A stretch of 63,829 nucleotides of DNA, filler included, from Stramenopiles sp. TOSAG23-6 (taxonomy: Eukaryota): NCBI GenBank assembly GCA_900128565.1. It is 13 parts of 13 records of this genome, joined end to end, with 100 filler letters (N's around TTAATTAATTAA, not from the genome) between each part and the next. Parts side by side here need not be neighbours in the genome. Positions count along the whole stretch, not along the records: positions 24,389 to 32,400 come from LT636484.1; 12 more parts are not named here. One strand, 5' to 3'. Under the pieces are notes generated by a model, which saw only the letters and a program-made list of their open reading frames with translations, was not told where the DNA came from and did not search any database. The position numbers and the translations under genes were made by a program. This document shows, piece after piece, positions 12,962-40,331 of this stretch. The stretch's first letter is position 1. Each line of letters begins with the position of its first letter.

Positions 12962-13711
12962 TTATGTCCGAAAAAGTTTCTGAAAAAAAATAATAATTGA
13001 TTGAAGACACCCACTTCTCGAAATCTGTTCTTTNTGTGTTTCTACCAAACTCACCTTAAACCCACCCTCACCCAGACAAACATATGAAAACCTTTGNTTT
13101 TCATTCTGTAAAAGATTTTCAACAGCTGGTTTAATCTTGGCCCTCTGACCTGCTGAGTGTATACCCTTACCCGTGATAATCTCAAGCTCGTGTCCCGGTA
13201 CCTGACCTGCAAATAGCATTTTCAATCGCTCTTGCACGTATTCTATTGCCTCTTTTAAGAAAAGACCATGTAAGTCCATTTGGTTAAGTTCATATCCACT
13301 GTTTTTAACTGCAAAAATTTGTGCTGCAGCCGCTCGGTCTTCGAACTCATATTGACGCTTAAGCTCGTGTGCTTGATTGAGCAACTTGCGGCGCTTANTG
13401 CGGCTAATCCCAGGATGATTTGCAGATTCAAATAGCTTACCAGCTTGTGCACGAAGAGAGTTTGCCGTGTCCCGATAATTTGTTTTGGAGAGACCTAAAA
13501 TGTCTAAAATCCTGGCTTTAGCGCGTTTCACCTGTATTTTAGGACCTTTGATGGTCACAATTGTAGAAGGGTCATGTTTTCGAGGCACTGTTACACATAC
13601 CCCAGGGTAATCTGAGTGGATATCTTTGATAGTGTTGCCACGAGTTCCAATGATTTTGCCCTGCTGGTCCTTTGGTACGTTTACAATTATGCTGCTGGTA
13701 TTGGCACCCAT
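12962..13711 (-). CDS. KH domain + Smr domain protein
   Basis: GKIIGTRGNTI (KH GxxG); MDLHGL...A and IITGKGIHS (Smr). Confidence 0.88.
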   Translation of the reverse strand: MGANTSSIIVNVPKDQQGKIIGTRGNTIKDIHSDYPGVCVTVPRKHDPSTIVTIKGPKIQVKRAKARILDILGLSKTNYRDTANSLRAQAGKLFESANHPGISRXKRRKLLNQAHELKRQYEFEDRAAAAQIFAVKNSGYELNQMDLHGLFLKEAIEYVQERLKMLFAGQVPGHELEIITGKGIHSAGQRAKIKPAVENLLQNEXQRFSYVCLGEGGFKVSLVETXKEQISRSGCLQSIIIFFQKLFRT

Positions 13712-13990
13712 TACTTTAACAGGAGGAGACTTCTTCGTGAGAGCCCAAATTCATTCCAATCACATGAACAAATCGATCAAATTGATCAAAATTGTTGTTT
13801 GACGTTTGACCATTCGCAAAGTCGCTTTTCGTTTTTTCATTTTCCGACGGTTGTTTTTTTTTAAATAACGGACGTATCATATACCTAAGATTAGTTATAT
13901 CTGGATCTGGATACGTACGTATACGTAGATCGACGTAGATACTTCTAACCCAAACGTTTGTTGAATATCTGTAATAATATCAAAAGGACA

Positions 13991-16259: not shown

Positions 16260-16975
16260 AAGATCCTTTTTGACTGCTGGGGATTGTACGTTTTCATTTT
16301 GATTTGGATTTTTTTTTCGTACGAAATTTTGTACCTAATGAATTTTTCTTTGAAATATTTTTTCACAATACTTGGACTGTAAAAGTCTGGGCTGAAGATT
16401 TAAGTTCGCCGATTATAAGTTCCCCATTTTGCTCTTCTTCATTAACAGCAGCTTGTTGGTCTTCATCTCGAGCTGGTGTTTTTTTTTGTGGGCGGAAGGA
16501 TGGGTATATCGATGTTTGGGATTTTTTCGAGAAACAAAAAGCACCTTCATTATCACATAAGCTTGGCAAAGCTTCTGTTACTTCACTGGGGTTGCAATCT
16601 TATAGTTTGGATTATGACGACCACAGTATTCTTGCAGTTGGTGATTCGGCTGGTGATGCCCATATACTTCAGTTATGTCCAGCTTTATATGGAAATCAGC
16701 ATAATGAAAAGGCATCTATTGCAAATGTGTTTGAAAGAGAATTTAATAGAGAAAAGAATCTTTTAGCAGCAGTGAAGAAAGGACATAGACGTCGAAAAGT
16801 CGCGCAGGAAATGGCTAAATTTCAAGAGGAGGAGAAGATTAAATTGAAAAATACGGAAGACGAACTGGATAAAAAATTAGCCGAAATAGATCAGGAATTT
16901 TTAGAAATGATGCGTAACCCAAACACTTCAGGAGCATTGAATCATATAGGTACAAAACCACTATCGACAGATTAA
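16260..16975 (+). CDS. DNAI2: DNAI2-like fragment (duplicate; intron 16286-16373)
   Basis: Same as 8131-8846. Confidence 0.7.
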
Positions 16976-17235
16976 TATTTGAAAAGTATAACTTTTTAGT
17001 ATAGAAACAAATAGAGAATAAAAGAATTAGAAGTTGAATTATTTTTTATCAAATTTCCTTTTTATTATTTTGTGCATTATATTATTTTGTACATGTTTTG
17101 TTTCATTAGATATTATAAATGATATTATAAATGGCATTTGAAATTTGACTTATACGATACCAATGCATTTTTATAGGCCTGCCAAGGACAAATAATTGGT
17201 ACAATTTTAATATCTAACCACCAAATTTTATTTCA

Positions 17236-18036
17236 TTACTGGTGCATCAGAACCTGGGTTTCAGGATGATGATGTTTTTTTGGATGATGTCCATGATGAT
17301 GTTTTTTTGGATGATGTCCATGATGATGATTTTTTGGATGGTTATCATCATCTTTTTTCAGAGCGAGACAAAGTTTATGACAAAAGTGCTCATTTTTCTT
17401 TGCCAAGCAAGAATCGCAATATTCGCCAATTGTTTGATTCGCTGCACAGCTCAAGCAGGGTAGCGTCAAAGCTCTGCAACACATCCGTTCATGTTTTTTA
17501 TCTTCAGCATTCTCCAAGACAGAAGACATTAAAGCCGTAGCTTTTTTCTTTATCTCAAGTAACACTGGAGGCGGGATTAGTACTTTATCNATGATATGTA
17601 CAACNCCATTTGATGCGTCAACATTCGGGGTTGTGACTCGAGCGTAGTTGATAAAGATATTGGAACCTTTTACTGTAGCAAGCACAGATGAACCAGATAA
17701 AGTTTTAATTACCTCTTTGTTTTTGAGATCTCCAGCGTGCACACTCCCGGATACAACGTGATAAGTGAGGATCTTTACGAGCGTACTTCAGTTTGTTGGA
17801 TCGAGAAGATATTTGATAAGAACTTTTGGTAGCATAGCAAACGCTTCATTCGTTGGAGCAAAGACAGTAAATGGACCTGGTCCCTCGAGAGTCTTTACGA
17901 GCTCTGCATCTNTAACTGCTGTCACAAGTGTTGAAAGATCCTTTGTCTTCGCTGCAAGTTGGACGATGTTATCATTAGTAGCATTCGTGAATGCAACCAA
18001 GAAAAGGTTTAGAAAAACAATCAATGTTTTACTCAT
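17236..18036 (-). CDS. fasciclin protein (duplicate)
   Basis: Same as 9107-9907. Confidence 0.8.
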
Positions 18037-18383
18037 TTTTCTTTTGTTAAAGTATTCGAAAGTTACTGGTTTTTTCTAAAGATGTCAGAAACACATGTCC
18101 AAAACCACCGAAAAAAATCTTTTTTCCCAGTTACCGGGTAACCAAATCTGATTACAAAAATTTATTTGAAAAGAAAAAGGCCATTAATTTCAAACAGTAT
18201 CTACAAATTGTATATTATCATTATATTGATCATAACAAGAAATCTAAAATCCATCTATTCACTTTAAAAAAAATCTTTTTTTCGTATATAAATTTGTTAC
18301 CTAAAAGGTACTGTCATGAGTTTTTTACCTTTATCGAGACTTATCTTCTTTTCGTATACAAATTTGTTACCTTAAAGGTACTT

Positions 18384-19655
18384 TTACCTTTGTCGAGACT
18401 CATCTTTCTCAGGCGGTTCTGGAATTGCTTTCACTGCTGTGACTAAGTCATCGACAGAAAATGTCATGAGTTCGTCTAATGTAGATTTTATGTCAAGGCG
18501 ACGATCTAAATGAAATTTTGCAAGTTTGTGAATTCGTTTTGCCATGGCAGCGTTAAACGTTGAACGTTGTCTTTGACTGGTATATGTTGAAATAATCTTG
18601 GCAAGTTCTTCAGTCTTCTGATTACCCCATTCCGAAGGAAGCTTNAATTTTTTCCTTTCAATTCGCATAACTGTAATTTTTGCGATTTCGAGACAAGAGT
18701 AATCTCTGAAACGAAAATGGCGTTGGACTCTCCTAAACATACCTTCATTTGATTGAAAAAATCGTTCCATATCTTTATCATAACCAGCAAATACCATGAC
18801 AGGGTCTCCATCATTCATAACTGCCATCAACTCTTCAATTGCTTCAGGTCCAAAATCAGATTTCGCACCAGGCTGTCCTAGTAGTCGATATGCTTCATCG
18901 ACAAATAAAATTCCTTCTTTAGCTTGTTCAATAACTTTTTGCGTTTTTGGACCTGTTTGACCAACATAACCAGCAACAAGATCAGAACGCTGTACTTCTA
19001 CTAATTGACCATGTTTCACAACACCAAGCGTTCTTAGGCATGATGCAACTAATCTTGCAACCATTGTTTTTCCTGTTCCTGGATTACCGTAGAATGCAAA
19101 GTGAGGCGCTTCTATCGGTCCAAGGTCCATTCCAAGCTCACGTCTACGCTTATCCAGTAATAGTTCTTGGCGCATTGACAGTATTTCAGCTTTTATATCA
19201 TCCAATCCTACTAGTTTTGCAAACTCTTCTTCCAGGTTAATTTTCTTTGCAGGTTTAATTTTAACTCTTTTTTCTTCTTTTTTTTTTGCTGCGTCCTCTT
19301 CCATTTTAGCAGTAGCTGTTCCACTTTCCTCCTCTCCAGCTATTGCTGACTTTAAATATTCAACACGATCCATATAACCAGACATACGACTTTTAATCAG
19401 ATCCTTTTCATGCATATTTTTACACCATTTCATATATATCTACTTTTATTACATACTAGTTGAAGGATCACTTGTGAGTTTTACAATAATTGAGAAAAAT
19501 AGAGTTAGGAAAAATGGTTGAATAATATAGCTTACCATTAAGTGATCTATACCTTTAAGGTATAAGTTTTTAGCTTTGTTTAACAAACCTTCATTATCAG
19601 CAGCGATTGCTTCTTTGATGAACTCAAGACCGCGTGTTTTTACATTGTCTGCCAT
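18384..19655 (-). CDS. MIT + CbbX-type AAA ATPase (duplicate)
   Basis: Same as 10255-11526. Confidence 0.8.
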
Positions 19656-19938
19656 TTTCTTTTCAAGAACGGAGGTCAAGAACAACAATATTGAAATATA
19701 TTTTGTCGTCGCGCCGCCGACATTTTCAAATTTTCTTTCAAATAATTTTTCCAACCCTAACCCTAGCTAGTTTTTTGATAGCTAATCATAATAATTATGA
19801 CAGTTTTTTTTTTTCAAATCAAATTTGAAAATTTTTGCAGACGGTCAGAAGAATTCCAAGAACAACACAATACATTGAATACAGTATAAAAAATAAAAAT
19901 TGCTATTACTACATATATATAGGCTATAAGTCAAAAGA

Positions 19939-20877
19939 ATGCCTTCTTTTAAAGAAGTAGCTGGGGCAATATTGCTTGGTATTATAACTGTAGCCTTGCT
20001 TACCCCAGAGGCTCCACGTCAACGCGCCACAAGACCTAGAAATTTTCCTCAACGACTAAGTCGTCCCCCCCCACCTAGATTAGCCTTTAGAGGAACCGCT
20101 GAAACTTTACAGCAAGGAAATCTTCCATCACAATTAATTGATTCAATGGCTGTGGACAATGTTAATGATGTAAGTGAAAATATAAATAATATAGACATCA
20201 TTGAAGAGTCTCCTGAAAGTCAAAATACGGACGAAGAAGTGGAATCCGGAGAGCTTGAAGCGGCACCAGGGATGCCTTCTCAACGTGTTGAAGAACTATT
20301 TGTCCTCCAAGACGAAAGTGAACAACTCGAGGTTGAAAGTCTTCTTCCAGGCGAGGCATCGAGTCTAATCCTGTCACAGAGAGCTTCATCATCGAGACCT
20401 TCATCATTGAGACCCAGTCCAACATCTCAAAGTAGTCGAGAGAATCCTTGCAACACAGACGAGGCAAAAGCACAGGCAGAAAATCGAATCACCTTAAATG
20501 AGGAATCTTTCGCCTCGATTTTTAGTGGAACAGATGCAATTAGATTGGCCAAAATATCCCGCAAAAGATGTATCTTTTGTGCATCTGACATAAATACTGA
20601 GAAACAACGTCTCAAAGAAAGAAAAATACGACGTGAAATACTAGAGAAACCATCACGTAATATCTTCTTAGAGTCAAATTGNTTAGGTATCAGTGATCCT
20701 ATATCACTTGATGTAATTTCTATAANTGATAATCCCGCNTGTATTTATGGCCAATGTTATGCAAAAGGGCCACTGATCAAAAACATTTCNACATTCAAAA
20801 ATATGCTCATTCCTCATACTGGTGAGAACTTCAGTGTGGCTGACATTGCACGAATTGAAAATCTGGGATGGTTTTAG
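19939..20877 (+). CDS. hypothetical, possible U-box (duplicate)
   Basis: Same as 11810-12748. Confidence 0.55.
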   Translation: MPSFKEVAGAILLGIITVALLTPEAPRQRATRPRNFPQRLSRPPPPRLAFRGTAETLQQGNLPSQLIDSMAVDNVNDVSENINNIDIIEESPESQNTDEEVESGELEAAPGMPSQRVEELFVLQDESEQLEVESLLPGEASSLILSQRASSSRPSSLRPSPTSQSSRENPCNTDEAKAQAENRITLNEESFASIFSGTDAIRLAKISRKRCIFCASDINTEKQRLKERKIRREILEKPSRNIFLESNXLGISDPISLDVISIXDNPXCIYGQCYAKGPLIKNIXTFKNMLIPHTGENFSVADIARIENLGWF

Positions 20878-21090
20878 TATGGCTGACATTGCTCGTATCG
20901 ACAATCTGGAATGATTTTAGTAAAATGGTAGTGATTATTTCTTTTCATAAAGGACAGTGATCAAACTGTTTGAAAACACCAGAAATGATAATGTAAATTG
21001 TGAGGAAACAATGAAATCATTTTAATCAAAAAACAACAAAATATTTACCTACTATAATAGTATAATTTAATGAAAGTGATTTTGTTAATA

Positions 21091-21840
21091 TTATGTCCGA
21101 AAAAGTTTCTGAAAAAAAATAATAATTGATTGAAGACACCCACTTCTCGAAATCTGTTCTTTNTGTGTTTCTACCAAACTCACCTTAAACCCACCCTCAC
21201 CCAGACAAACATATGAAAACCTTTGNTTTTCATTCTGTAAAAGATTTTCAACAGCTGGTTTAATCTTGGCCCTCTGACCTGCTGAGTGTATACCCTTACC
21301 CGTGATAATCTCAAGCTCGTGTCCCGGTACCTGACCTGCAAATAGCATTTTCAATCGCTCTTGCACGTATTCTATTGCCTCTTTTAAGAAAAGACCATGT
21401 AAGTCCATTTGGTTAAGTTCATATCCACTGTTTTTAACTGCAAAAATTTGTGCTGCAGCCGCTCGGTCTTCGAACTCATATTGACGCTTAAGCTCGTGTG
21501 CTTGATTGAGCAACTTGCGGCGCTTANTGCGGCTAATCCCAGGATGATTTGCAGATTCAAATAGCTTACCAGCTTGTGCACGAAGAGAGTTTGCCGTGTC
21601 CCGATAATTTGTTTTGGAGAGACCTAAAATGTCTAAAATCCTGGCTTTAGCGCGTTTCACCTGTATTTTAGGACCTTTGATGGTCACAATTGTAGAAGGG
21701 TCATGTTTTCGAGGCACTGTTACACATACCCCAGGGTAATCTGAGTGGATATCTTTGATAGTGTTGCCACGAGTTCCAATGATTTTGCCCTGCTGGTCCT
21801 TTGGTACGTTTACAATTATGCTGCTGGTATTGGCACCCAT
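21091..21840 (-). CDS. KH + Smr protein (duplicate)
   Basis: Same as 12962-13711. Confidence 0.85.
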   Translation of the reverse strand: MGANTSSIIVNVPKDQQGKIIGTRGNTIKDIHSDYPGVCVTVPRKHDPSTIVTIKGPKIQVKRAKARILDILGLSKTNYRDTANSLRAQAGKLFESANHPGISRXKRRKLLNQAHELKRQYEFEDRAAAAQIFAVKNSGYELNQMDLHGLFLKEAIEYVQERLKMLFAGQVPGHELEIITGKGIHSAGQRAKIKPAVENLLQNEXQRFSYVCLGEGGFKVSLVETXKEQISRSGCLQSIIIFFQKLFRT

Positions 21841-22119
21841 TACTTTAACAGGAGGAGACTTCTTCGTGAGAGCCCAAATTCATTCCAATCACATGAACAA
21901 ATCGATCAAATTGATCAAAATTGTTGTTTGACGTTTGACCATTCGCAAAGTCGCTTTTCGTTTTTTCATTTTCCGACGGTTGTTTTTTTTTAAATAACGG
22001 ACGTATCATATACCTAAGATTAGTTATATCTGGATCTGGATACGTACGTATACGTAGATCGACGTAGATACTTCTAACCCAAACGTTTGTTGAATATCTG
22101 TAATAATATCAAAAGGACA

Positions 22120-24288
22120 ATGATACGCAGCAGAACACCTCATTTGGATAGAATTGGTATTGAGTCAATAAATCCAACACGGTCCCTTGGTATACCAGTT
22201 GCACAACGACGTCTAAAGGAAATTGTCAAAGATATTAGTGGACAAAGTGAAAGAGAGCCCAACACGGAAAAAAGAAAAGGGAAGCACAAAAACAACAAAG
22301 AAAAATATCATCCAGAAACTCTACTGTTAGCAAAGGTTCCACGAATATCCAAGTCGCAACATAGTGACATATCATTGTGCTTGTCAACTGTGCAGTTATC
22401 ACGTGCACTACCTACTTGTCATTTTTGGATGGTATTGACTTGTATATTGGTCAATGTAGCTTTGACAGTCCTCTGTGCTTGCTTGTTTCGATTCTTCACA
22501 GAATCCTTCACCGCAGCCTACCCATCAACATATCGTGGGCCGACAAATGTCACGGTGTTTGCAAATACGATGCTTTTCCTTGGTGGCTTAGGTATTATTT
22601 CTCATTGTACAATGGAGTCTCTTTTGAGTACTGCTCGACATCGGTTCACGTATATCGCTNCCTCATTGGTAACAGAAGATATGCGCGAGGATGATGACAT
22701 TGAAGCAATGGACATCAGCGTTACTGCGAACGCTTTATTTCATCTTATTCCAGTAGCCTTACATTCGGTGCTTGTATCTATAATATGCACGGGTTTTATG
22801 TTTTATCTAAGCTGGAGACATGCCCTGGTCGAATGTGGCACAATTATTCTAATGGTTATTATATTGGTGTTGTATTCAACATTTATTGACAAGTATAACT
22901 CTGAACGAAATTCAATACATGATAATTCAAATGATCTAGTTAATATTGAACATGAGAAAGCGTTAATCGAACTGAAAAAAACTAATTTACGAAAACGTAA
23001 ATCTAGTCTTAAATCTAGCCGTTCTAAAATTAATACTGGAAATGAATCATACGATGAAAATTCAAAAGAATCAGAAGAATCAGAAGAAGCGGAAGAAAGA
23101 GAAGAAGTTAAAGAAAGGAAAATAATGGCAATCAAAAACTATGCGCTCCAAGAAGTGACGGCATCATGGCATATTGCATATACACTTGTAGTGCTGTTTA
23201 TTTTACTCGGTTCAGTGTATGCATTTATTTTTCTAAGCATCAGTATTGCGGAAGAACAAGACAGTGAACCTAACGTTCTTGTCAAGATTCTTTTACTCTT
23301 TTTTACATTGTCACATTTAAAAACTGCAAATTTTTCAATTCTTCAAATTAGCTCAAATTCTGATTGTATCTCGCGAATAAATGATATACTTTGTAATTCA
23401 GACTTGAATTCGCTATACCGGCATTCAAAATTCAATCTTTCTAGTGACTTAAAAAACGCAATGCATAAAAGGGTTAGTAAACCTAAAGTGGATCGTTCCG
23501 TAATCTACTCTATACATGTAGTATTTGTAGGGTTCATGATTATTTTTATCAATAACTACCGTAGAGGTCTTCGAGTTTGTTCTCCTGAAGTAACAGTGGA
23601 TTGCTCAACAAAATATAACAATACAGAACAATACTGCGGACGTGTGACAATACAACAAGAATTTGACTTTTCATCAGCGTCATGTTTACCAGAAAGTAAA
23701 GACGTTTTATTTGAAAAATGCTATTCTATATGTAAGACATATCCAATTGAAAAATTTGATATCACCTTGAACGCTACACCACTTGGTGATGATATGATGT
23801 CACAAAACCTTCAACCAACATTTTCAATATCAATACCAAAAGAAGAAGGAAACAGACGTAGTCTTCGACGGATACTCCAGAATAAACAAAGGGGGAACCA
23901 AGTAACATATAACAGTGGTAACAGTCCAACGCCAACAAACAATCCAGCACCAGCACCAACACCAAAAACACCAACACCAACACCGCCGCAGGAAACAACA
24001 CAAACAACTCCAGCTAATGCTGGTGTCGTTATAAATGGGGATGGCACTAAAATCTATATGAATTCAGAATCAACAAACGCTCAAACAAACGCTCAAACAA
24101 ACGCTCAAACAAACGCTCAAACAAATGCTCCAACAAACGCTCCAACACCAACACCAACAAAAACACCAACACCAACACCAACAAAACCACCAACAAAAGC
24201 TCCAACAAACGCTCCAACACCAACAAAACCACCAACAAAAGCTCCAACAAAAGCTCCAACACCAGCACCAACACCAGCACCAACAAAA
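22120..24288 (+). CDS. multi-pass membrane Pro/Thr-repeat protein (duplicate)
   Basis: Same as 13991-16159. Confidence 0.7.
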
Positions 24289-24388: not shown

Positions 24389-24585
24389 CCTTTTGTATTG
24401 TAAAAAAAATTTTTTTTTTTTTTTTTTTTTTTTGTTAGGTACAATATTTACTATGAAAAAAAAATGTAAAAAAAAAATCAAAATTTTTTTTTTTTGGTTT
24501 AGGTACAAAATATCGTACGAAAAAAAAAATTAAAAAAATAAAAATAAAAAAAACGAAAATTAAGTGTAGGGTAAAAAAAACGTAC
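24389..24585 (-). other. family intron (3' end poorly resolved)
   Basis: A|GTACGTTTT...TTCGTACGATATTTTGTACCTAA; core appears twice. Confidence 0.6.
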
Positions 24586-24775
24586 TTCCATTACACAACA
24601 TTGATATGATTGCAACATATGTAAATGGTGTTATACATTCACAATATTTCTGCTGCATTGTTTCAAATATTTGTAACGCAGTGTTTAATTGATTTGTTTC
24701 TTTACACACACGTAAGGCTATTTGAAAACTATGTCTATTTGGCTTGATTTTGTCATTCTGGAATATATCAAAACA
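24586..24775 (-). CDS. pentatricopeptide-repeat-like internal exon
   Basis: IKPNRHSFQIALRVC...ALQIFETMQQK...TPFTYVAIISMLC, flanked by family introns. Confidence 0.6.
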
Positions 24776-24900
24776 ATGTATTTTGGAAAAATATTTCAAA
24801 ATTTTTTTTTTTTTTAGTTTCAAAAAAAAAAAAAAAAAAAAAAAAAAAATTAAAAAAAAAAAAAAAAAAATTTTTTAGGTAAAAATTTTTGTATAAAAAA

Positions 24901-24934
<34 letters not shown>

Positions 24935-25004
24935 CTAAAAAAAAAAAAAAAAATTTCTAAAAAAAAAAAAAAAATTGAAAACATTTGAAATGATGAAAAC
25001 AAAC
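24776..25004 (-). other. family intron GT...AT (homopolymer-garbled, possibly chimeric)
   Basis: AAT|GTTTGT ... TCCAAAATACAT|TGT. Confidence 0.55.
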
Positions 25005-25730
25005 ATTTACTTCTCCTGGTTTCTTCAGTAAAGTCTCCCCAGATTTGTTTGCAAAACAATAATATGTTTGAAACATATATCGGCGATATTTGCGTTTATC
25101 AATGAACTCAGTTCCATCTGGAGCTACATATTTTATCACTTCATCAGGTTTCTTTATTTCCTGGACTAAAATTTTTTCGCGAATTACATTTTCTTCCACA
25201 TCCCCATCGTCATAAGTAACTACATATGTTCCATTATCATTGACTTTTGTTACTTTTCCAGGATAATACGTCTGTGTATCTTTGAAGCGACATGTCACCA
25301 TCGAATCTTTCTCAATAGGTCCCGTTTGATCAGCAGCGGCTACAGTTGGAGGGCCTAAAAGTTTAATCTTTTCACGTCCGACATTTGCTTCAGTGTCTCC
25401 GTCATCATATGTTATTGTATATGTTCCATTCAGATTAGTTGCCGTAACTTTCCCCCCATAATAAGTTTCCGACTTTTGAAAACGACAATTCACACGGGTA
25501 CCAACAATAATGGGTGTATTCACGACTAGATGATTACGTGGTACGTTTTCTTCAACTTCTCCGTCATCATATGTCACTTTATATGTACCGTCGTCTGATA
25601 AACATGTGACCTTTGCACCATACCATGTTTGAGAACCTTGATAAGCACATCGTACAAGTGTACCTACGGTAACAACTGCACCAAGGGAGGATCCAGCATC
25701 CGCAGTAGGTGGGGCAGGAGGAACTGACAT
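25005..25730 (-). CDS. three Tudor/Agenet-like repeats followed by the start of an XRP2/TBCC-like domain (first exon)
   Basis: 3x (W/Y)YxxKVT..xxGTYxxTYDDGxxExNV; then YCFANKSGETLLKKPGEVN. Confidence 0.75.
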
Positions 25731-26075
25731 ATCTTTATAGTCGGATTATATTTTTAATTTGATGTACAAGTAAGGAATAGAGACAGACACCAATTTCTAA
25801 TAAATAAATAAATAACAACACTTGAGGCGTTATTTATATTTTTTTAACGGCAAAACACGCGAACAAACCTGCTCTCGAATGAAGAAGTTTTTTTTTTATT
25901 TTTTTGACTTCATTTTGGCTCAAGAAAACCGCAAGAACAACAACAACAAAAAGAGACAAAAAAAAGAAGAAAAAAAAAATCCAAAGAAGATCGATATCTA
26001 GTTTAGGTTGGAAGTTCTTCCTTCATACATTGTTTCTTTAATGTATTCCGAATAATGATAAACATATAAAGTGTA

Positions 26076-26663
26076 ATGCCTCATATACGAAGGGGAAGTC
26101 GCATACTCTTTGTAGTATTCTACAGTGTATTCTGCAAAGTTAATTGTAATTTACTCAGAAATAAGAGTAAAGATGAACAAGTGATTCAGCTGGACAACTT
26201 TCCAACGGATAACGAGAATCACTTGCAAGTAAATTTAGTTCCTGAAAATGCTTCTCCATCAGACACAAGAGTCATTCATGGAACATTTACCGGTTCATTT
26301 CGTAATTCATTTGATGGGCCACTATCGTTCGTTCCAACAAAAGAACAACAGCCTACAGCGACCGAATACAAATTTGATGCTAGAGTTCCTTTATACGCAA
26401 CTTTCCCTCCAGGTATGTTGGTTCATAATACTATTGAAACTGATGATATTCAAGAACCTGAAAGCGATTTTTCTGTAGTCACTGTAAAAAATGAAAACAA
26501 TGCTCCCATGAGAGAATCGATTTTGCGTTCTTCAATGAGGGATTTAATTAGGGAACCGAATTTACACGTAATGGGACACGACACTAGTAGATTAGTAGGA
26601 CTAATTGTTGCTCCAATGCCTGCAACGGAAAGATTAAATAAGTATACATCAGATAACAAATAA
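26076..26663 (+). CDS. hypothetical, possibly secreted protein
   Basis: 195-aa ATG ORF with hydrophobic N-terminus. Confidence 0.6.
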   Translation: MPHIRRGSRILFVVFYSVFCKVNCNLLRNKSKDEQVIQLDNFPTDNENHLQVNLVPENASPSDTRVIHGTFTGSFRNSFDGPLSFVPTKEQQPTATEYKFDARVPLYATFPPGMLVHNTIETDDIQEPESDFSVVTVKNENNAPMRESILRSSMRDLIREPNLHVMGHDTSRLVGLIVAPMPATERLNKYTSDNK

Positions 26664-26845
26664 AGACTACCAAACAAAACTTGAAACAGAAAATATTATG
26701 TTTATATCAAATTAAAACAAATTGTTTCTTTTTTTTGTAAAGTAAACTACGTACTATTTTTGGTACCAAATGAATTTCAAAACTTTTTTCGTACCTACCG
26801 ATTTTCAATTTGGTATATTTACTTGACTACAACACAAAATTAAGT

Positions 26846-28427
26846 TTAAAGAGCATTTTGAACTTCCTTATCTTCCTCACGCATGTCCATTATTTCATGG
26901 TACAATTTATTAATTGCACCATCTCCATCAAGATCAGTACAGTACTTGTTAAATGATTTCTTGTTTCGCAATGAGTACAATTCAATTAACAATTTCACCT
27001 CCATATCGACTTCTGCTGCTTTTTTTTCTGCTAACTCTTCAGATGTCAAGCCTTCAAGTTCAGCAAATGAGAAACGTCCACGCCGAGTCATATCTACTCC
27101 ATAATGTTCCCCATTTAATTCAAAAGACACATCATCAGTCACAATAGACTGAGAAGCCTTAGCCATTGCACTTTCCTGCTCAGCTGTGAGCGGTTCCAAT
27201 TTCCCTCTGTTTGCCAATTCTTGCATTCTTTCCAATAACTTTCCTGCCATTTCGAGGTCTTTAAATTCACCATTATTTATTTCAAGATATTCGTCCACTT
27301 TTGCAATCAATTCAGATGTCTTGGTAAGAGCAAGATCTTCTGTGGAAATTTTCTTTTCCGTGAGGATTGAAGCAACATTATCTTTAGTTAAAGAAGATGC
27401 CCAGGTTTTCAAATCTGTTGATGACATTTCTTTAAATGATGCACCAACCGCTTTATATGCTGATTCATCTTTGGCTGCCTGCTGAGCTCGAGATTCAATT
27501 TCTTTTTTGAAATATGCCAATTGTTCATCAGACACATCACCAGCCGTAACAGAGTGACCGGATGCTTGTCGTTTTTCCATAGCTGTAATCTCATCAAGAA
27601 ATTCACGTTGAGTATCTTCGTCGAGCGTTCCAAAAGCTTTTGTATCCCATCGTTCCTGAATGAGTGCAACACGAGCAGCATTGACGTCAACAGCATCAAC
27701 TTCATTATCATAGTTATGTTTTGCTAAGTCGGCTTCGAGCTCTGCTTCAATGTCGGGAAATCGAGCAGCGACCGAGTCATAATCTGTCTCTGCATTCGTA
27801 CGGGTTGCTTCCAATTCAGCAAGTTGTTCTTTAGCAGCACCCAAATGCACATTCATATCACTTTGTGTTTGAGAGATGCTAGCGAGGACGTCCGATTCAG
27901 TCGCTTTGAGAGAAGCTTTTTCTTCTGCTGCATCCTTGGAGAAATCAGTGTATTTGTAGCTTGAGTATTCTTGTCTCACCTTTGCAACAGCATCTTTACC
28001 AAGAATTTTTTCATAAGCTGCCCAATCTACCTCACCTAACGCCTCTTGTGATTGAGCTGTTGCGAGGGACGTTCGTTTACTCATGTCAGCAAGTTTCGTT
28101 CCCCACTCGAGTTTTTTTGACTCTGGGATCATATTACCCATGTTGGACCTGTAATGTAAAGGATATACAAAAAAATACATCTAATGAGAATATGAGTCAC
28201 ATGAAATTATGTGAATATAAAGTTTGTATAATTGAAACGAGACCCACACGGCACTCGCCAAAAATGACGTCGCTGTGCGAATAGTGTTTAATACTTCATG
28301 GACAGAAAAAATATAGTCCATAATGATTGAACATTCGTATAAATAGTACTTACCAGTGATTACCAGTTGCTAATGCTCGAACACCATTGGTGTGTGAAGC
28401 AACACGGAGAGTGCGGAAGAGCATCAT
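26846..28427 (-). CDS. mitochondrial ATP synthase subunit d-like protein with long C-terminal extension; canonical intron 28149-28353
   Basis: Presequence-like MMLFRTLRVAS...; VDWAAYEKIL...VAKVRQEY motif; strong codon bias. Confidence 0.65.
28149..28353 (-). other. canonical GT-AG intron
   Basis: TG|GTAAGT...TTACAG|G restores H-W-S-N-M. Confidence 0.85.
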
Positions 28428-28646
28428 CTTTATATTGTGCCGTTAAATCTATAAGAAATCGACAATAAAGGCGCAGAGAGAGAGAGAGAGAGAGACAACG
28501 AACTCGTGAAAAGGAAGACGCGTGTTTGGTTGGCCAACTAACCCTAACCCTAATTACAATTTTACCTAACCCTAACCCTAGAAGTACGTGTTGTATTATA
28601 TATAGTCATAACCAAATTTATTTATTTTATTATACAATATTAAAAA

Positions 28647-29309
28647 CTACTCGGAATCATTTTTAAGCATTACAAATACCCTTGCAGGGCGAATGACTTG
28701 CTCATCACATGAATAGCCAACTTGCACAACAGAAGTTACTTCGTTATGTTTTGCATTTTCCACTTCATCAACTGTACTACGCCCTACAGCTTCATGACAG
28801 TCAGGATTAAATTCCGATCCTAATGGGTTTATTTTGACAATGCCATGTTTTGTAAATGTTTTTTGTAGTTGCATCTTGGTCATGGACACGCCTTCAAGTA
28901 ATGCTTCTTTTGATGTATCTGTTTTTTCAATGTCTGACGCCCTTTCCAAGTTATCTGCAACATCGAGAAGATCCTTTGCGAATCGGACTTTACCCTGTTG
29001 ACGTGCCTTTTTTACATCAACTGCTGATCGCTTTTGAAGAGTTTCTATTTGTTTTGCATACATTTGTCTGATAGAATGCCGTTCAAGCTTTAAGCGCCGC
29101 CTCGATAATGCATATATCGTAGCTACACTTGCACACACAGCAACTCCACCTAGAGCTAAAGCCACCTTTGCATTTCGTTCTAATTCTTCTCTTTGTTCTT
29201 TGAGTCCTGTGACTTCTTCTATTAAACGTTGACGTCGACGGTTCTCGGACTCAATGTGTCGGGCATGTGCAGCACGAAGCTCTCGATCATTGGATAATAC
29301 ACCACCCAT
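28647..29309 (-). CDS. grpE: GrpE-family nucleotide exchange factor with N-terminal hydrophobic segment
   Basis: FAKDLLDVADNLERA, LEGVSMT, FNPDCHEAV, VGY...VIRPARV. Confidence 0.85.
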   Translation of the reverse strand: MGGVLSNDRELRAAHARHIESENRRRQRLIEEVTGLKEQREELERNAKVALALGGVAVCASVATIYALSRRRLKLERHSIRQMYAKQIETLQKRSAVDVKKARQQGKVRFAKDLLDVADNLERASDIEKTDTSKEALLEGVSMTKMQLQKTFTKHGIVKINPLGSEFNPDCHEAVGRSTVDEVENAKHNEVTSVVQVGYSCDEQVIRPARVFVMLKNDSE

Positions 29310-29669
29310 GGAGAGAATGATTTGCTGGAACCTTAAAAAAATATGATATAGAAACGAGAACAACCAAAAGAAGGGGAAGAAAATCGAGTTGACTTTCAAG
29401 GTATTTATTTATTACCGGGTATCGGAAAAAATTTTTAAGTCGAAAAAAGTTTCAAAAAACGATTTTGTGAAATCACACTCTATCGGCAATTATCAAGAAT
29501 TTTGCAACGTATATACGTTACTTTTCAAAAGTAATTACAAATAGTATCTACTTCGATCTACTTGTTTTAGTCTAGCTTTTATTTATCCGTTCGAAGTTCG
29601 AACTCTATCCGCATCTTCTTTCCCCCACTTATTCAACATTCACGACAATCGACAATAATCGACAATAAT

Positions 29670-31397
29670 ATGAAAAACTGTTACATCAGCATTTTGTCCA
29701 TTGTATGCTTTTCCTTTGTGGCAACAGAAGTTATGTCGGCGCTGTCGTCGGAGGTGAAGCGGGCGGCATCCCGTAGCGCTCTCCGCAATCTCCGTAATGC
29801 GAATGATCGTGAACGACAGTATTCAGTATGGAATAAAACAAAAAATTCAATACGTGAAGATCCAGAGAAGATGCGTAACCTGTTTTTACGACATATTGTT
29901 GCTAAATTTCAGTCACAAGATCCGAAAGAGACAGAAAAGTATACAAAGTTTTTGAAATTGGCACAAACAATTGAACAACAACAGCTTCAACAAAGTAATG
30001 TTCAGTGCCCTTCTGGTCGATTACAACAAACTTTTTTCAACGCATATAATTGTATTCTAAATGCCAAAATGGAACTAGGAGAATTGCGACAACAACAAAC
30101 CAACTTTGAAGGAGCATCTTCAGTATTCTATCCAGAATGTGAAGTAGCCAGAAAAATTTCGAAATGTTTTGATGATTGTTGTGATGATATAGAAGAATTT
30201 GTCAACTTTGCTATGCAAAATGTTGGCAAATATCATGTTCAAAGTTTTTCTGCATCTGAAGTTTGCGATGCTTCTCAATACTACGGCTACAATCCATCAC
30301 AAAAACAATACAAACTCAAATTTGAGTGTCAGCGAAGTGTAGATGATCAAAAGAGGTTTGAGGCACAGGAAAAATTACAAAAACAAATAAAGGAAGAAGA
30401 GGAAGCCAATGCAAGAAGAGAGAAGATAAGGAAAGAATCTCAAAAACAAAGAAAACAGCGACTGGCAGAAGAGAAACAGCAACTGGCAGAAGAGCAACTG
30501 GAAGAGCAACTGGTAGAAAAGTTGCAAGAAGAGACAGAGAGAGCTCAAAATTTTTTGATACAATTGAACAAGGAAATTTCAGACACTCAAGAAGAGGAAA
30601 TGGTCATTCCAAAAGGCAATGTATATGCAAAACAATCAAATGATTCGGATCATACTCTAGAAAAGATGTTACAGAACGGGAAAGTGAAGAAAATTGGTAA
30701 AGTGATGAAAAGTGGTACAGATGGGTTTTTTTATGGAACAGTGAAAGAAAGAGATTTATATGTTGATACATGGTCATCCAAATGTCCTAAAAATGATGGA
30801 TTTATTGACGCCGCTAGATTCCCAGAGAGAGCCAAACTTTGGGATGAACATGTTGCACAAAATGGACTCTGTCTCCGATTTTATTACTGTGAAATGAATT
30901 CATTGAGTCCAAAAGGTGAATTTGTGATACTAAACCCCAAACAGATGATTATTGACTCCCAGTACCAAGATTTGGTGTCAATTTATCCATCATATGCATC
31001 AAAATCAGGAAGAAACAATACAAAAAAGCCAAAGCCCTTTACATTTACACAAGTCACTTTTCAATTTCAATGCATTGTTTCCACAAAATTTGAGCCTAGG
31101 CTACAACAGCGGCAAAAAAAACACGGAACAAACACCACTGGATACTATTACGAAACGATGTATGTTTTATTTTTTTTTTCAATTTCAAATATTTTTTTCG
31201 TACGAAATTTTGTACCTAACGTTTTTTTTTTTGAAAATATTTGTACAAAATACATACTAGGACAGTTTGTATCTAAAGGGAAAGGTTGTGGGAATAAGAC
31301 ATTTGATTTTGATGTAGAATCCAAAATAGGAGGAGACAATGTCCCCAGCTCTCATTTGGAAATGGTAACACGGCATACGAGAACCATCCATTGGTGA
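29670..31397 (+). CDS. hypothetical secreted protein; in-frame family intron 31160-31255
   Basis: Signal peptide, coiled-coil middle region. Confidence 0.7.
   Translation: MKNCYISILSIVCFSFVATEVMSALSSEVKRAASRSALRNLRNANDRERQYSVWNKTKNSIREDPEKMRNLFLRHIVAKFQSQDPKETEKYTKFLKLAQTIEQQQLQQSNVQCPSGRLQQTFFNAYNCILNAKMELGELRQQQTNFEGASSVFYPECEVARKISKCFDDCCDDIEEFVNFAMQNVGKYHVQSFSASEVCDASQYYGYNPSQKQYKLKFECQRSVDDQKRFEAQEKLQKQIKEEEEANARREKIRKESQKQRKQRLAEEKQQLAEEQLEEQLVEKLQEETERAQNFLIQLNKEISDTQEEEMVIPKGNVYAKQSNDSDHTLEKMLQNGKVKKIGKVMKSGTDGFFYGTVKERDLYVDTWSSKCPKNDGFIDAARFPERAKLWDEHVAQNGLCLRFYYCEMNSLSPKGEFVILNPKQMIIDSQYQDLVSIYPSYASKSGRNNTKKPKPFTFTQVTFQFQCIVSTKFEPRLQQRQKKHGTNTTGYYYETMYVLFFFSISNIFFVRNFVPNVFFFENICTKYILGQFVSKGKGCGNKTFDFDVESKIGGDNVPSSHLEMVTRHTRTIHW
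31160..31255 (+). other. non-canonical intron, GT...AT (96 nt)
   Basis: AT|GTATGT...TTCGTACGAAATTTTGTACCTAAC...AAAATACAT|A. Confidence 0.8.
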
Positions 31398-31772
31398 TCA
31401 ATGATGTTGTGTATGTATCAGTATGTATACATGTGTACGTATGATTGTTGTAGTGAAGTTTTCTTTTGAGCATTTGAGCTTTTGAGCGTTTGAGTCGGTG
31501 GAATGAATTCTTTACTTTTGACATCTTTATAAGTCAATTTGAAACAGTTATTTGGTAGGAAAGGAATTTCATTATTATTGCCAATAAAAAAAAATGTACA
31601 CAATATAATCTTTTTTATTTTGTTTTTGTTTTTGTATTTTTGTCAATTTTTGTATCGCACTTCTCCATCCCCGCCAGTTCAATGTAGGTGCTTATAATAT
31701 ACAAATCAAATTGCTGTGGTATTTTGATGCTTATATATACTTTTTTTGTATCGCAATCATATAGGTGCAATT

Positions 31773-32400
31773 TCAAATATTCCCATTGCTTCTTGCGGCA
31801 GCTATTTCTTGTCTTCTTGCAGCAGCTATTATTTGTTGGCGTCTTGCGACTCTTTCTGCCATTGCCTCTCCTGCTCTTCTTCTTGCTTCGTTTATATAGG
31901 CTCTTCTTTCGGCTGCTTCTCTTTCGGCTTCTCTTACTTTTGCTGGTCTTGCATTTGCTTTTCTTCTTTCGCCTGCTCTTGTTGCTGCTGCTCTTATTAT
32001 TGCTAATCTTGCATTTGCTTCATTTATTTCGTCTGCTGTTCTTACTGTTTCTTTTCCTTCTCCCATTGCTTTAAAGTGTTTTCTTGTTTTTTCATCGATG
32101 TTGACACATTTGCTCTTTACAACGCTGTTTCGATGTTGAACAAATGATTTTTTTCCGGTTATGGTGGTACGAATGTTCGGATTTTGGTCCGGTTCCATCC
32201 CTAAAAGTTCACGAATTGTTTTTTTCTGGCCATCCTCTCCCATATTTTTCTTTTTGTTCTTCTTTTCTTTTTTTTTAGGCTCCTCCCCTTGTGACATTAA
32301 GGCTTTTAATCGATTTATTTGTTCTTTTTTCGAAAGAGCCATTTTTGCACACTCCGCAAACGTTTCTTTATATGTTGAGTGTTGAATGCCCAACACCTCG
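31773..32400 (-). CDS. hypothetical charged coiled-coil protein (5' partial)
   Basis: Open to contig end; Lys/Arg/Ala/Glu-rich. Confidence 0.5.
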
Positions 32401-32500: not shown

Positions 32501-32554
32501 TATAAAAATTTTGTACCTAACGATTTTTTTTTGAAATATTTTTCCAAAATACAT
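32501..32554 (+). other. 3' half of family intron
   Basis: TTTTGTACCTAAC...AAATATTTTTCCAAAATACAT; the ORF-track ATG at 32553 straddles this junction. Confidence 0.75.
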
Positions 32555-36412: not shown

Positions 36413-36799
36413 GGTGTCTTCTCTAATGGCGTATATAGATGAGAAATACTTAATGTAATAGGTTCTTCTTAGGGATAATTGGGTTTTTCATCGACAGTAA
36501 TTTATAATGTGTGTGTTGTCGTCTACTATATACTAGCTAAAAGCCTATTTCGGTTCTCTCCTACGTATGAATTAATTTTCAAAAGTTTGCACTTTGTTCT
36601 TCTTTTTTCTTTTTCCTTGTTGAGCAGGTTCGTTCAAAATTAGAATGATAAACAAGATAAACAACGGTCGTATCTTTCGCACAGCCAAAAAAAATTGCCT
36701 TTAGAATAATATATCTACCTTGATATTATAATTATATTCTTTATATCATTTGGAAAGTGAAGCCATAGATTAAATTGATAGTGTTTAAGTTTTATCGGC

Positions 36800-39700
36800 A
36801 TGAAGGAGGCATTGGTGCCCCAATTAAGAGAAGCCTCTAAAAATGGAAGTTCCAAATATCAGCTCTTAAGCCTCTTGTCACCGTTTCGACCACAATTCAA
36901 CACTGTAAAGTCGGATGCTTCAACACCTGGTCACTTACTCTTTAATTCGGAAGTGATAATTCCTAGATGCACTATATATCCTAGTGGTGATTCATTTCAT
37001 TCTACCGAACCAAGGTCTCGTCGATCCTCTGCCGAAGAACTAGCATGCAGCGTNGCACTCAAATCACTACGCAAAGTTGAACATAATCGAAAACGTTTTG
37101 CTTTTCAAAAAAAATTACCAACTCCTACTCTTTTAATTTCTTCAACGAATGGTAAGGGTACACAAAGTCTTCTTCGGATGGTCATGTATGTTCAATATAT
37201 AATGCCAATTATAGCAGTAGTATTTTGTTACACAACTNGTCTTCCAGATTGGTTGAACGCTACAGAACAAAAAGAGAGGTTCGGTTTTGTACGAGAACAT
37301 CCTTTTGTGTGGGACGACTTAGAAGCCATTCTTCATCAACCAGATGTTCAAGGAACTACATCTATATCATCATTATTTTTTAGTGGTAGAGATTTCTGGG
37401 GTCAATTGCCTACTTCAAATAATTATTTAGGTGCATGGAGGCCAGTCACTATCGCTTTCTTTAGGCTCCAGTTTTACTTTACAGGATTATGTATGTTTTA
37501 TTTTTTTTTCAATTAGAAATTACGAATTTATTTTTCGTACGAAATTTTGTACCTAAATATTTTTTTTTGAAATATTTTTCCAAAATACATCGTATTTGAC
37601 TCCAATATTATTTCATACAACTCACNTGTGCTTACATGCCATTGCTGCAAGTTATGTAGTATACATTGCAAACCAAATAATTGATTTAAATGAGACAAAT
37701 GTTAGATGTACCAAAAAATATATGTCCAAAATGCTTACATATTTTGTCAGTTGTGCGTCTGGAATGGCATATGCTGTAGATCCTATACACACAGAAATTC
37801 TACATTATGCATGCGGACGCGCCCAACTCTTGTGTACATTGTTATTTCTTATAGCATTATCGAATGTTTTACAATATCATGGGAAAAGAATGCTTCGTCA
37901 AAAGTCCTTACATAATAATGAAAAAGTTAAGCTTTTTTTTATTCAAGTTGGTCTCAGTTTTTTATGCGGTTTAACTTGTGCCGAAGGAGCTGTAGTTGGA
38001 ATAATCATTGCCGCTGCAGATTTTTTATTAAGTACAAGAAGATTGACACAAACAAGTGAAAAACATGATGTTTTATTACGTACAATTCCACTTCTCAGTC
38101 TGTCATTTACACTGATATGGATCCATTGGCGTTTGATACTTAATTCTGTAGCAGGCCATACGTCTCTTTCACTTTGGGAAAAAATAGAGATTGGCTTTGA
38201 AAGTAACACCCGATTAATTGCACTTGTTAGCATTACTATCTTTGCTTCATTGATACACACAAGTTTACATATACATTGGATTCTGTCTCGATTTTCTATC
38301 GGGTTAGCATCGTGTACATTTGTGACACAATTCTTCTCAGCAACTGCGCCATTGGAAGCTGGGTTTCCAATAATTCCACGACTCAGTTGTTTAGTCACTC
38401 CAGTACGTTATTTATTTATTTCTGAATGTATGAGAAATGTAATAGTTTTAGCTCAAAATTATACAACTTCAAGTCGCTTACATGTAGTAAAAAAGTCAAA
38501 GAGAGTATCCAATATCAGCCTCAATCGTTTCATGTCATGTATCTTTACATCTATGATATCTATCTTTACCTCAAAAACTTTGTTATGTATAGTNGTATTT
38601 GCTCATATTTTACAAATGGGTCGAATGACTGTCACAGAAACATCTTCTTGGAAGAATTCATCAATGAGAAACACGACGCGAAATAAATCAATTAAGTTTT
38701 CATCTAATAATGTGAGACTTCTATATCGACAATCAATTTTATTTTTAGATGCAAGTTATGAAAATAATTATACAAAGAACATTACCACTGAAATGGGTAA
38801 AGAAAACATGGCAAATCTCTTGCAATCAGCTGAGTTTGGTCTTTTAAAAGTTTTACGAATTGAACCACAAAATGCTAAAGCTCTTCTTGGACTGGGTTTA
38901 GTGTACGAAAGACTTGAACTTTTAAATATCAATCTCAAAAGTCCAGTGAAAATGGGAAAAAAATACTTTATTCTTGGGTCATTTCGTTTAGCTGTCGCGG
39001 CCCCGAATGGAAATGTTGGATGGATGCTTGCGACTTTAGGGAAGAAATTAGCATATGGCGGATTTCATATGCAAAATGAAGCAGCGATGCATTTATCAGC
39101 AGCAATACATACTCCACGATTACCTCATCAAAATCGTAGCGAATGGTATCATACACTAGCTGTTGTTGAATTGAGACGCGGAAGGCTCGAAAAAGCAAAA
39201 AAAGTTCTTGCTCAGGCTATATCAGAGATGAATACTTTCCAAACGGATAATACTATACAGGATGTAAATGATGGAAACGTATATGCATTATTGGGTCTTT
39301 TATTATCTAGTCAGGGACAATTTTTACCTGGGGTTGGTTTAATTCGTAAGTGTACAGCATTTCAAAACAATATCTGTAATAATGTACTGAATATTGTATA
39401 CAAAGAATGGTCAAATGCAAGTTCAGTTGAGGAAGGGGAAATAGTCAAAGAGAGGGCAATGAATCAACTCATACAGTTCGTTGGTTGGGGAAAGTACACG
39501 AATGATCTGTTTAACATGCAAAATATAAATACAGAAACTATATTTGATGAAGATTCGGTGAGTCAGGCAGCTTTATGGGATTCATTTGATTGTTCAATGA
39601 ATCTGAATCTTTTGGATAATGAAACTCGTCAAGTGAAAACAAGGCGGGAGTATTTGATACTAGAACTACAAAAAAAGTTGAGAGAAGCTTGTAGTATTGT

Positions 39701-40331
39701 TCATACAACTGAACCAATTTGGTTAGATCAGAGATTAACTATCAAATTTAACGTAGACGAAATTCCACAAGAAGTAATGATTGGTAGAAAGGATGATTCA
39801 TTAATTGCTGCAATGTTTATTTGTAGAGTGCACATGTCTGACGTTGAGCACGAATTATGTATGAAATCTATACTACCAGAAATTATAAATGTACAAAATC
39901 AAGAAAAATTTCAACACATTGAGAAAAACAAACAGGGAAATGATATTGTTCTTGGTGCAATTTGTCGATTATTACTTGAACAGGCTGAACATATTGATAA
40001 ATGTAGAAAATCATTACAACTATACCAAAATGGTACAAATATCTATGATTGGTTGAAACCAAATTCCTTGAAAACATTATTATTCAAAAAGATAAAAGTC
40101 CAGTACAAGATTGAGAGCTATGATAAAGTATTTGGTATCAATATTTTACTTACTGTAGATAATGTTGTTCATAAAGCCCATAATAGATGTTTGGTGCACG
40201 AAATATCAAATATGAAATGTGAAAAATTCATTCAAAATATTCAAAATCAATGGCAAATACAATTTAGACGAATAATTGATGCAAAAAAAGAGACACAAGT
40301 TTTTAATATTTTAGGAAATCTTGTCCAATAA
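36800..40331 (+). CDS. TMTC-like membrane/TPR protein with N-terminal dsRBD-like segment; intron 37491-37590
   Basis: WDDLEAI...PDVQG...DFWG...WRPVT..FRL, P..FH....LH, HTE....GRA.LL, TPR-like helices. Confidence 0.7.
37491..37590 (+). other. non-canonical intron, GT...AT (100 nt)
   Basis: AT|GTATGT...core...CCAAAATACAT|CG joins ORFs 36800 and 37596 in frame. Confidence 0.85.

Follow-up and report, generated by a model that had tools for sequence, protein, structure and literature searches.

Where is an intron cut when its 3' end carries no AG? The question is raised by a 96-nucleotide (nt) unit at positions 31160-31255 (+ strand) of a 63,829-nt stretch of DNA from Stramenopiles sp. TOSAG23-6 (assembly GCA_900128565.1), hereafter the window, which is made of pieces of ~8 kb and ~1.08 kb separated by N44-TTAATTAATTAA-N44 linkers (e.g., 8031-8130). 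The original prediction for this locus held that a palindromic core fused to a branch-point-like CCTAAC forms an extended branch element or an RNA hairpin, possibly read by a variant small nuclear RNA (snRNA) or a dedicated protein, and that this feature defines the 3' site in place of AG. Our analysis points to a different answer: the unit probably belongs to a family of transposon-derived short introns ("introners") in a MAST-3-like marine stramenopile, the motif being the internal core of the element.

The copy at 31160-31255 is in frame and stop-free within the open reading frame (ORF) 29571-31397, and the exon upstream of it ends with AT at 31158-31159. It can be divided into an element (31160-31253) and a 2-nt copy of AT (31254-31255). 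The element starts with a 5' splice-site-like GTATGT (31160-31165; family consensus GTAYGTTTT). As the original prediction described, the perfect palindrome TTTCGTACGAAA (31196-31207) overlaps the near-palindrome GTACGAAATTTTGTAC (31200-31215) and is followed by CTAAC, the whole arrangement occupying 31196-31220. The most conserved module of the family, AAATTTTGTACCTAAC (31205-31220), could correspond to the branch-site region, with a presumed branch A at 31219; it ends with TACCTAAC (31213-31220), in which CTAAC lies at 31216-31220. Directly after CTAAC, a G followed by 11 T's (31221-31232, with the T's at 31222-31232) resembles a polypyrimidine tract. The second palindrome-like sequence that had been placed ~10-20 nt before the acceptor, AAATATTT, was found at 31235-31242, within the conserved 3' module GAAATATTTTT and 13-20 nt upstream of 31255. 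The element end CAAAATAC and the duplicated AT (31246-31255) form the putative 3' splice site, the sequence that ends at 31255 being ACAAAATACAT.

This unit is one of many. Allowing at most one mismatch, the 12-mer TTTCGTACGAAA occurs 16 times in the window against 0.30 expected (100 shuffles, none of which reached 16), although only 15 of these occurrences are independent, as one sits in piece 16260-24288, an exact duplicate of piece 8131-16159. A profile search with the core (nhmmer) returned 22 matches at E-values of at most 0.0014 (including one in the piece that is duplicated); two less significant matches also turned out to be copies, and three further degenerate copies were recognised by reading the sequence. 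The family thus occupies about 25 places in the 64-kb window, in roughly ten different ORF contexts, and wherever ORFs flank a copy, the copy lies in sense. The unit of ~100 nt consists of GTAYGTTTT(A/C)AT, a T-rich stretch with AATTTCGAA, then TTTTTCRTACGAAATTTTGTACCTAAC, a T-run, GAAATATTTTT, and (C)ACAATAC followed by 2 nt, so that its 3' module, downstream of the T-run, is AAATATTTTT and then ..ACAATAC. Intron lengths range between 86 and 104 nt and reach 229 nt in decayed or composite copies. Among 17 5' ends, positions 1-3 and 5-9 are conserved in at least 90%, 16 begin with GT, and GTACGT is found at the 5' end in half of the copies.

These units appear to behave as introns without an AG acceptor, ending with AT, TT or AA. 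When each is removed from GTAYGT to 2 nt beyond the conserved ...AYAY end (the "element + 2 nt" rule), long open frames are rejoined in all 15 testable copies; the sixteenth complete copy (24393-24585) was left out of this test as its downstream exon is cut off. In four of the 11 simple copies, no AG occurs between CTAA and 30 nt past the end, and in four copies (55365, 55964, 56250 and 7323) the distal end is the sole frame-compatible choice when compared with a nearer AAATAT| site. This part of the original prediction, introns without an AG acceptor, is therefore in agreement with our results. Of the 16 complete copies, 13 end with AT, two with TT and one with AA; an A occupies the penultimate position in 14, and the last three bases form a YAY triplet (CAT or TAT) in 13, the other three being CTT or CAA. 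A 3'-end rule based only on YAY was discarded, since it leaves the copy ending at 5575 out of frame, which the "element + 2 nt" rule resolves. Likewise, candidate AG ends at 24511 and 58918 (...CATAG) were rejected, CATAG being a variant of the core within composite introns.

The variation of the terminal dinucleotide follows the host sequence. In ten of 16 copies, the last two intron bases equal the last two bases of the upstream exon (permutation p=0.007), and all three non-AT ends match their own exon (TT/TT, TT/TT and AA/AA); in addition, the copy at 5475-5575 comes into frame on no other condition than that the intron includes the TT copy. This match, non-AT ends included, is what leads us to a 2-bp target-site duplication and therefore to an introner-like mobile element. 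Similar copies are found within the introns of unrelated genes, with a target-site duplication at their borders, as in introners. Two copies located in a stretch with stops in all frames, one without a 5' site and the other a bare core, also fit insertion at the DNA level.

Under the introner reading, each copy would carry a one-strand splicing cassette made of the 5' site GTAYGT(TTT), the branch-site module AAATTTTGTACCTAAC, the T-run, and the 3' module AAATATTTTT..ACAATAC, the branch A being presumably the second A of CTAAC. Insertion would have taken place in DNA and duplicated 2 bp of the target, AT in most cases; on removal, the element and one of the two target copies would leave together. 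The intron would then close with host bases that had been duplicated (AT, TT or AA) and not with AG, its 3' splice site being given by position, 2 nt beyond the element end. The palindromes would have been inherited from the ancestral element and would not be kept up as a structure. What we infer in this scheme is removal by the spliceosome, the branch point and the factor that picks the 3' site.

The conservation of the core partly agrees with the earlier expectation that the motifs are better conserved than their spacers. Measured as pairwise difference on anchored, ungapped alignments, AATTTTGTACCTAA differs by 0.056, the 12-nt palindrome by 0.25, and the first 12 intron bases by 0.21, so that the expectation stands for AATTTTGTACCTAA and falls for the palindrome, which is poorly kept across copies. 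In a 21-row alignment of the core, invariant or near-invariant columns cluster in AAATTTTGTACCTAA, and decayed copies retain TACCTAA(C) with the palindrome mutated or deleted (TTTCATACCTAAC at 58458-58618 and ATACAAAAATTTTTACCTAAAA at 24776-25004). It is plausible, judging from its composition and position, that the CTAAC end of the core and the T-run are a branch site and a pyrimidine tract carried by the element. Strong conservation also extends to about eight bases upstream of TACCTAAC, including AAATTTTG. Recent copying accounts for part of it, as the core is preserved with a single mismatch in the non-coding fragment; the alternative would be that something contacts these bases, upstream of the branch site, in a sequence-specific manner.

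In contrast, the palindromes as a maintained hairpin are not supported, as neither of them covaries. In TTTCGTACGAAA, the C-G and G-C pairs are broken in seven and nine of 19 distinct rows. In GTACGAAATTTTGTAC, the left arm decays opposite an invariant right arm; its outermost pair is broken in ten of 19 distinct rows, and its paired share (83.6%) is at the level of shuffled sequences (83.1%; 189 of 500 shuffles as high). At the G10 pairs, nine and ten of the 19 distinct rows are unpaired. The search for compensatory changes that had been proposed as a check found 0-2 pairs changed on both sides, most variants breaking pairs. RNAalifold applied to ten complete copies gave a 5-bp hairpin as the sole structure (-0.05 kcal/mol), devoid of compensatory pairs, and the folds of single copies are weak and differ among copies (z between -1.8 and +0.3). 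The hairpin half of the original prediction is thus not supported.

Its other half, a core with CCTAAC that acts as an extended branch element, read by a variant snRNA or a dedicated protein and measuring the distance to the 3' site, deserves closer consideration. Compared with the 5' end or the palindrome, AATTTTGTACCTAA varies four to five times less; it also exceeds the length of a normal branch site and survives in decayed copies. Moreover, the terminal dinucleotide cannot be the 3' signal itself: it is not fixed (AT, TT, AA), so an internal feature must place the cut. As stated in the original prediction, the branch-like sequence (TACCTAAC) differs from both the U2 (TACTAAC) and the U12 (TCCTTAAC) branch consensus sequences. 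The predicted spacing of ~35 nt at four copies was recovered, with 38 (8157), 39 (31160), 37 (37491), and 39 nt (49462) from the C of CTAA to the intron end and ~35 from the presumed branch A, and CTAA lies 37-46 nt upstream of the end in all 11 simple copies. However, a spread of 10 nt in this distance speaks against a strict ruler, and composite copies differ further, whereas the cut consistently falls 2 nt past the local motif ...ACAAYAY, which makes the local 3' module a simpler determinant. Also against this reading, neither palindrome covaries, the left arm decays uncompensated, there is no consensus structure and the folds are weak, and the equally conserved non-coding core fragment attributes part of the conservation to recent copying. 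The extended branch element is supported in so far as the 14-16 most constrained nt contain CTAAC, precede a T-run and lie at a branch-like distance; as a whole, we regard this explanation as rather unlikely.

Other origins of the family have to be weighed against the same observations. If the units had spread through RNA, by reverse splicing followed by reverse transcription and recombination, their flanks would be a preferred proto-splice site, and the sense orientation of every copy with a host gene, the weakness of the terminal inverted repeats and the lack of a transposase in the window would be readily explained. This is nevertheless a quite improbable route, as the last two bases covary with the upstream exon, which is expected of a target-site duplication and not of a fixed RNA end, and a copy and a fragment sit in non-coding DNA without a 5' splice site. 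It is extremely unlikely that the units are transformed minor (U12-type) introns. These have the 5' site RTATCCTT and a long, conserved branch site, TCCTTAAC, near the 3' end, no pyrimidine tract, and flexible 3' terminal bases. The resemblance lies in GTATGTTTT, which agrees at seven of nine positions with the U12 5' consensus, GTATCCTTT, in CCTAAC, one base away from CCTTAAC, and in the non-AG ends. Against it, the family starts with GTAYGTTTT, in which positions +5 and +6 deviate from the U12 consensus and GTAYGT (GTACGT in half of the copies) is a good major-type site, and TACCTAAC, with a T-run behind it, is 37-46 nt away from the end, while U12 branch sites are roughly 10-20 nt from it, with no tract. 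Finally, the units might not be removed from RNA at all, either because they are insertions that disrupt genes in decay or because these DNA segments are cut out of a somatic genome. Decay would be in line with a single-cell genome study that reports "advanced pseudogenization" for the dynein heavy-chain genes of a MAST-3 lineage (PMC5778133). Still, a precise restoration of the frame in 15 of 15 copies, across roughly ten genes with long ORFs on both sides, is unexpected for random disruption; a branch motif, a T-run and a 5' site are all found in sense orientation within each unit; and seawater poly(A) metatranscriptomes contain shares of at most 0.15 of piece 24389-32400. This explanation is very unlikely.

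Several observations weigh against the introner reading as well. The full 2-nt flank match is absent in six of 16 copies, and where the flanks mismatch the borders could move by 1-2 nt with the frame unchanged. Terminal inverted repeats are weak, with 3-4 perfect bases, GTA(Y)/(R)TAC, and the 72% complementarity of the 25-nt terminal arms occurs in T/A-rich low-complexity sequence. Conservation is higher in the interior than at the termini, an unusual pattern for a miniature inverted-repeat transposable element (MITE), and no autonomous element or transposase was seen in the window. The census covers 64 kb of pieces, from which genome-wide statements are extrapolated, and removal from RNA is something that we infer from DNA alone. 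The C-terminal 165 residues of the host ORF of the 31160 copy had no match among transcript-derived proteins of 90-289 residues. For the whole of this ORF, a search against 1.84 billion protein representatives also gave no match. This copy (96 nt) and that at 50567-50668 (102 nt) have lengths that are multiples of three and are stop-free in the host frame; retention would therefore add 32 or 34 residues and leave the protein unbroken.

The remaining copies display the same layout at different stages of preservation. Complete copies on the + strand are those of 88 nt at 8157-8244 (GT..TT with TT/TT flanks; under another upstream frame, an alternative end at 8242 would give GT..AC), repeated identically at 16286-16373 in the duplicated piece; of 100 nt at 37491-37590, which joins ORFs 36782-37516 and 37557-40331 and has no AG from CTAA to 30 nt past its end; of 92 nt at 49462-49553, with the 7-nt direct repeat AATACAT at each border; of 95 nt at 55365-55459, joining ORFs 51799-55437 and 55434-56009; of 103 nt at 55964-56066, with a 5' GTTTGT; and of 90 nt at 56250-56339, with the diverged core CATACCAAATTTCGTATCTAAC. 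On the - strand, the copies at 50567-50668 (102 nt) and 63076-63169 (94 nt) are complete; in the former the sequence is in frame and stop-free, as mentioned, and in the latter an AG located 6 nt upstream would give an early stop. The copy at 7220-7323 (104 nt, - strand) has ATATGT (7318-7323) in place of GTATGT and CCCAAC in place of CCTAAC; its removal restores a long frame despite the altered 5' end and branch motif. More degenerate copies on the - strand are found at 5475-5575 (101 nt, GT..TT), where the core has decayed to CATTGAAAATTTCGTGGGTAAC, and at 24776-25004 (229 nt), with expanded T-runs and the core reduced to ATACAAAAATTTTTACCTAAAA. The composite copy at 24393-24585 (- strand; GT..AA with AA/AA flanks) contains two cores, with CTAA at 24502 and 24438, and its downstream exon is lost at the piece end.

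The 1085-nt piece 58010-59094 holds five copies, all on the - strand, with exons of ~77-190 nt between them. These are a 5' part with core truncated by the piece end (58010-58094); a copy of 151 nt (58191-58341) that splits a PDZ-like domain, whose profile match resumes in the next exon; a derived copy of 161 nt (58458-58618) with the palindrome deleted (TTTCATACCTAAC), the 3' half duplicated and CCCTAA repeats; a composite copy of 147 nt with a 5' GTAGGT (58808-58954); and a 3' part truncated by the piece end (59021-59094). The telomere-like CCCTAA repeats (2-3 units) lie inside two derived copies, at 58590-58612, 58505-58520 and 58835-58850 (- strand), and each of their units adds another CTAA. 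Altogether, six piece ends cut through element copies. Further truncated copies comprise a 3' part at the start of a piece (32501-32554, +), a 5' part with core at a piece end (56635-56721, +), a 5' part (59195-59245, -), and a 5' part with core whose T-rich 3' part is cut by the piece end (61563-61677, -).

The stretch with stops in all frames contains the copy without a 5' splice site (60467-60560, -) and the core-only fragment with one mismatch (60650-60720, -). A direct repeat of ~60 nt (TTGAAATTCATC...CACCACCTCCTC) lies on both sides of the former (60379-60640, -), whose 3' end, ...ATACAT, directly abuts GTAT, resembling a head-to-tail junction. A core-like sequence of 26 nt at 49676-49701 (-; nhmmer E-value 5.6e-05) is of uncertain status: it lies antisense within the open + strand ORF 49424-50092 and on its own strand would give a 42-nt GTAAGT..CTAG unit. 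This unit (49688) was rejected as an AG intron, being antisense in an open + frame, and may be an exonised antisense insertion. The same ORF shows a frame shift at an A9 run (~50040-50065), either a homopolymer assembly error or the true gene end. Beyond the window, a scan of metagenome contigs with a 21-nt core pattern retrieved one contig of 1076 nt (L001), and no copy was found in the viral contigs scanned with the core pattern. The contig (1-1076) looks chimeric, with a DNA-polymerase-like exon and one element copy at 1-170, the remainder being unrelated AT-rich sequence on the other strand with an adapter-like 3' end.

The host is a MAST-3-like marine stramenopile. This assignment comes from the DOHH ORF at 864-1796 (- strand), to which the public protein GSMAST32.ASY1.ANO1.2412.1 (P0124) is identical across all 285 aligned residues; the next-best match has 65% identity, and the named matches thereafter are oomycetes (45-46%). 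Two segments of this ORF, of 13 residues each, are missing from the public coding sequence of P0124 (window 1302-1340 and 1362-1400, - strand), and in both cases the missing part is a GT..AG stretch of 39 nt. As homologues conserve the two segments (WKE..R; SLFNSVDPAPP), the gaps look like false canonical introns in the public gene model. The window is AT-rich (GC ~29-41%), its genes use the standard genetic code with all three stop codons, and SH2, WW, Tudor and fasciclin domains and compact genes were found in it. These domains and genes, together with the YAY ends, had pointed to a Fritillaria-like larvacean, a candidate that was discarded in view of the DOHH ORF. In ORF 26849-28180 (- strand; 444 residues), only the first ~145 residues match mitochondrial ATP synthase subunit d, and the protein has a long extension that is acidic and coiled-coil-like. 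Neither Rfam nor tRNA scans gave a match in the window, and thus no snRNA is seen in it.

To our knowledge, AG at the 3' end of introns is nearly universal and has been abandoned on a large scale only in Fritillaria, Amoebophrya and euglenozoans. Such lineages are the main handle on how the spliceosome chooses a 3' site without AG, and the window suggests a further independent case among abundant, uncultured marine grazers. A transposon-derived non-AG intron family is of a known kind, and its lineage is new within the literature searched. The core sequence is printed nowhere in that literature, and none of the papers listed by the search pairs "introner" with MAST-3, MAST-4, Incisomonas, Nanomonadea or Solenicola; the Incisomonas genome paper leaves introns unmentioned. 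In the accessible part of the MAST-3/MAST-4 single-cell genome paper, introns are mentioned in the methods only, and low gene counts and "pseudogenization" are reported for MAST-3 (PMC5778133). Gene finders restricted to GT-AG will split, truncate or mis-splice genes of this type, and the low MAST-3 gene counts and "pseudogenization" may partly reflect this restriction. Very tentatively, most or all spliceosomal introns of MAST-3 might belong to one mobile family with a positional 3' site (2 nt past the element end, irrespective of the terminal bases), the long branch module AAATTTTGTACCTAAC being recognised by a factor that co-evolved with it, for instance an altered U2, SF1 or U2AF. We see this extension as possible but doubtful. 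If true, AG-free splicing would have an independent origin outside tunicates, Amoebophrya and euglenozoans, and the gene catalogues and pseudogene calls published for these uncultured protists would be distorted, as gene finders assume GT-AG. With its canonical 5' site, a branch motif like that of yeast and a 3' site created by a 2-bp target duplication, this very uniform family has rules that are easy to test.

Among known systems, intron-poor lineages have constrained branch sites, as exemplified by TACTAAC in yeast and by the fused branch/3' motif of Giardia and Trichomonas. The stramenopile family resembles them in its near-invariant branch motif ending with CTAAC and in its GTATGT 5' site; it differs by the extra C of TACCTAAC and the ~8 conserved upstream bases, a conservation that is inseparable from recent common descent. 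The non-conventional introns of euglenids have no pyrimidine tract and no GT 5' site, and rely on the pairing of their ends. Border direct repeats and a proposed transposon origin are shared with them, whereas end pairing is not seen here. U12-type introns share the flexible 3' bases and differ in the 5' and branch consensus and in the branch-to-3' distance.

Canonical introners were reportedly described in Micromonas and Aureococcus by Huff and colleagues in 2016. Like them, the present elements are non-autonomous, carry their own splice signals, lie in sense orientation in genes, and form introns from the element and one duplicated target copy; in contrast, canonical introners splice as GT-AG (or GC-AG), and the stramenopile family does so without AG. 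The composition of element plus one target copy is given for Micromonas, Aureococcus and dinoflagellates (PMC11282704). The introner elements of Amoebophrya have hairpin-forming inverted repeats of 8-20 nt, direct repeats of 3-5 nt and no fixed 5' signal (PMC7789003). Amoebophrya, too, is a marine protist whose introns are repeated and non-canonical; direct repeats overlap their exon/intron borders, the terminal dinucleotides vary, and inverted repeats lie at the ends of the Amoebophrya elements (PMC7789003). The repeat lengths of the Amoebophrya type are not found in our family, which displays 3-4 nt of terminal complementarity, a 2-nt repeat, and a strongly conserved 5' site and branch motif.

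A precedent is offered by Fritillaria, for which two papers describe MITE-derived non-canonical introns in which a duplicated exon triplet creates a non-AG 3' site (PMC11282704; PMC13326754). Their 3' ends are AT or AC within a near-invariant YAY triplet, often also present upstream of the 5' site (PMC13326754; PMC11282704). Both systems are multi-copy, with target-site duplications that make a non-AG 3' site, YAY, and a retained U-rich tract; the Fritillaria introns have inverted ends, to which the weak terminal repeats described above may correspond. A host lineage of the Fritillaria type was ruled out by the DOHH ORF, the host here being a stramenopile and not a chordate. The 5' site is the canonical GTAYGT here and predominantly AG in Fritillaria, and the stramenopile family is further distinguished by a 2-nt duplication, TT and AA ends, one dominant family, and a long conserved branch module.

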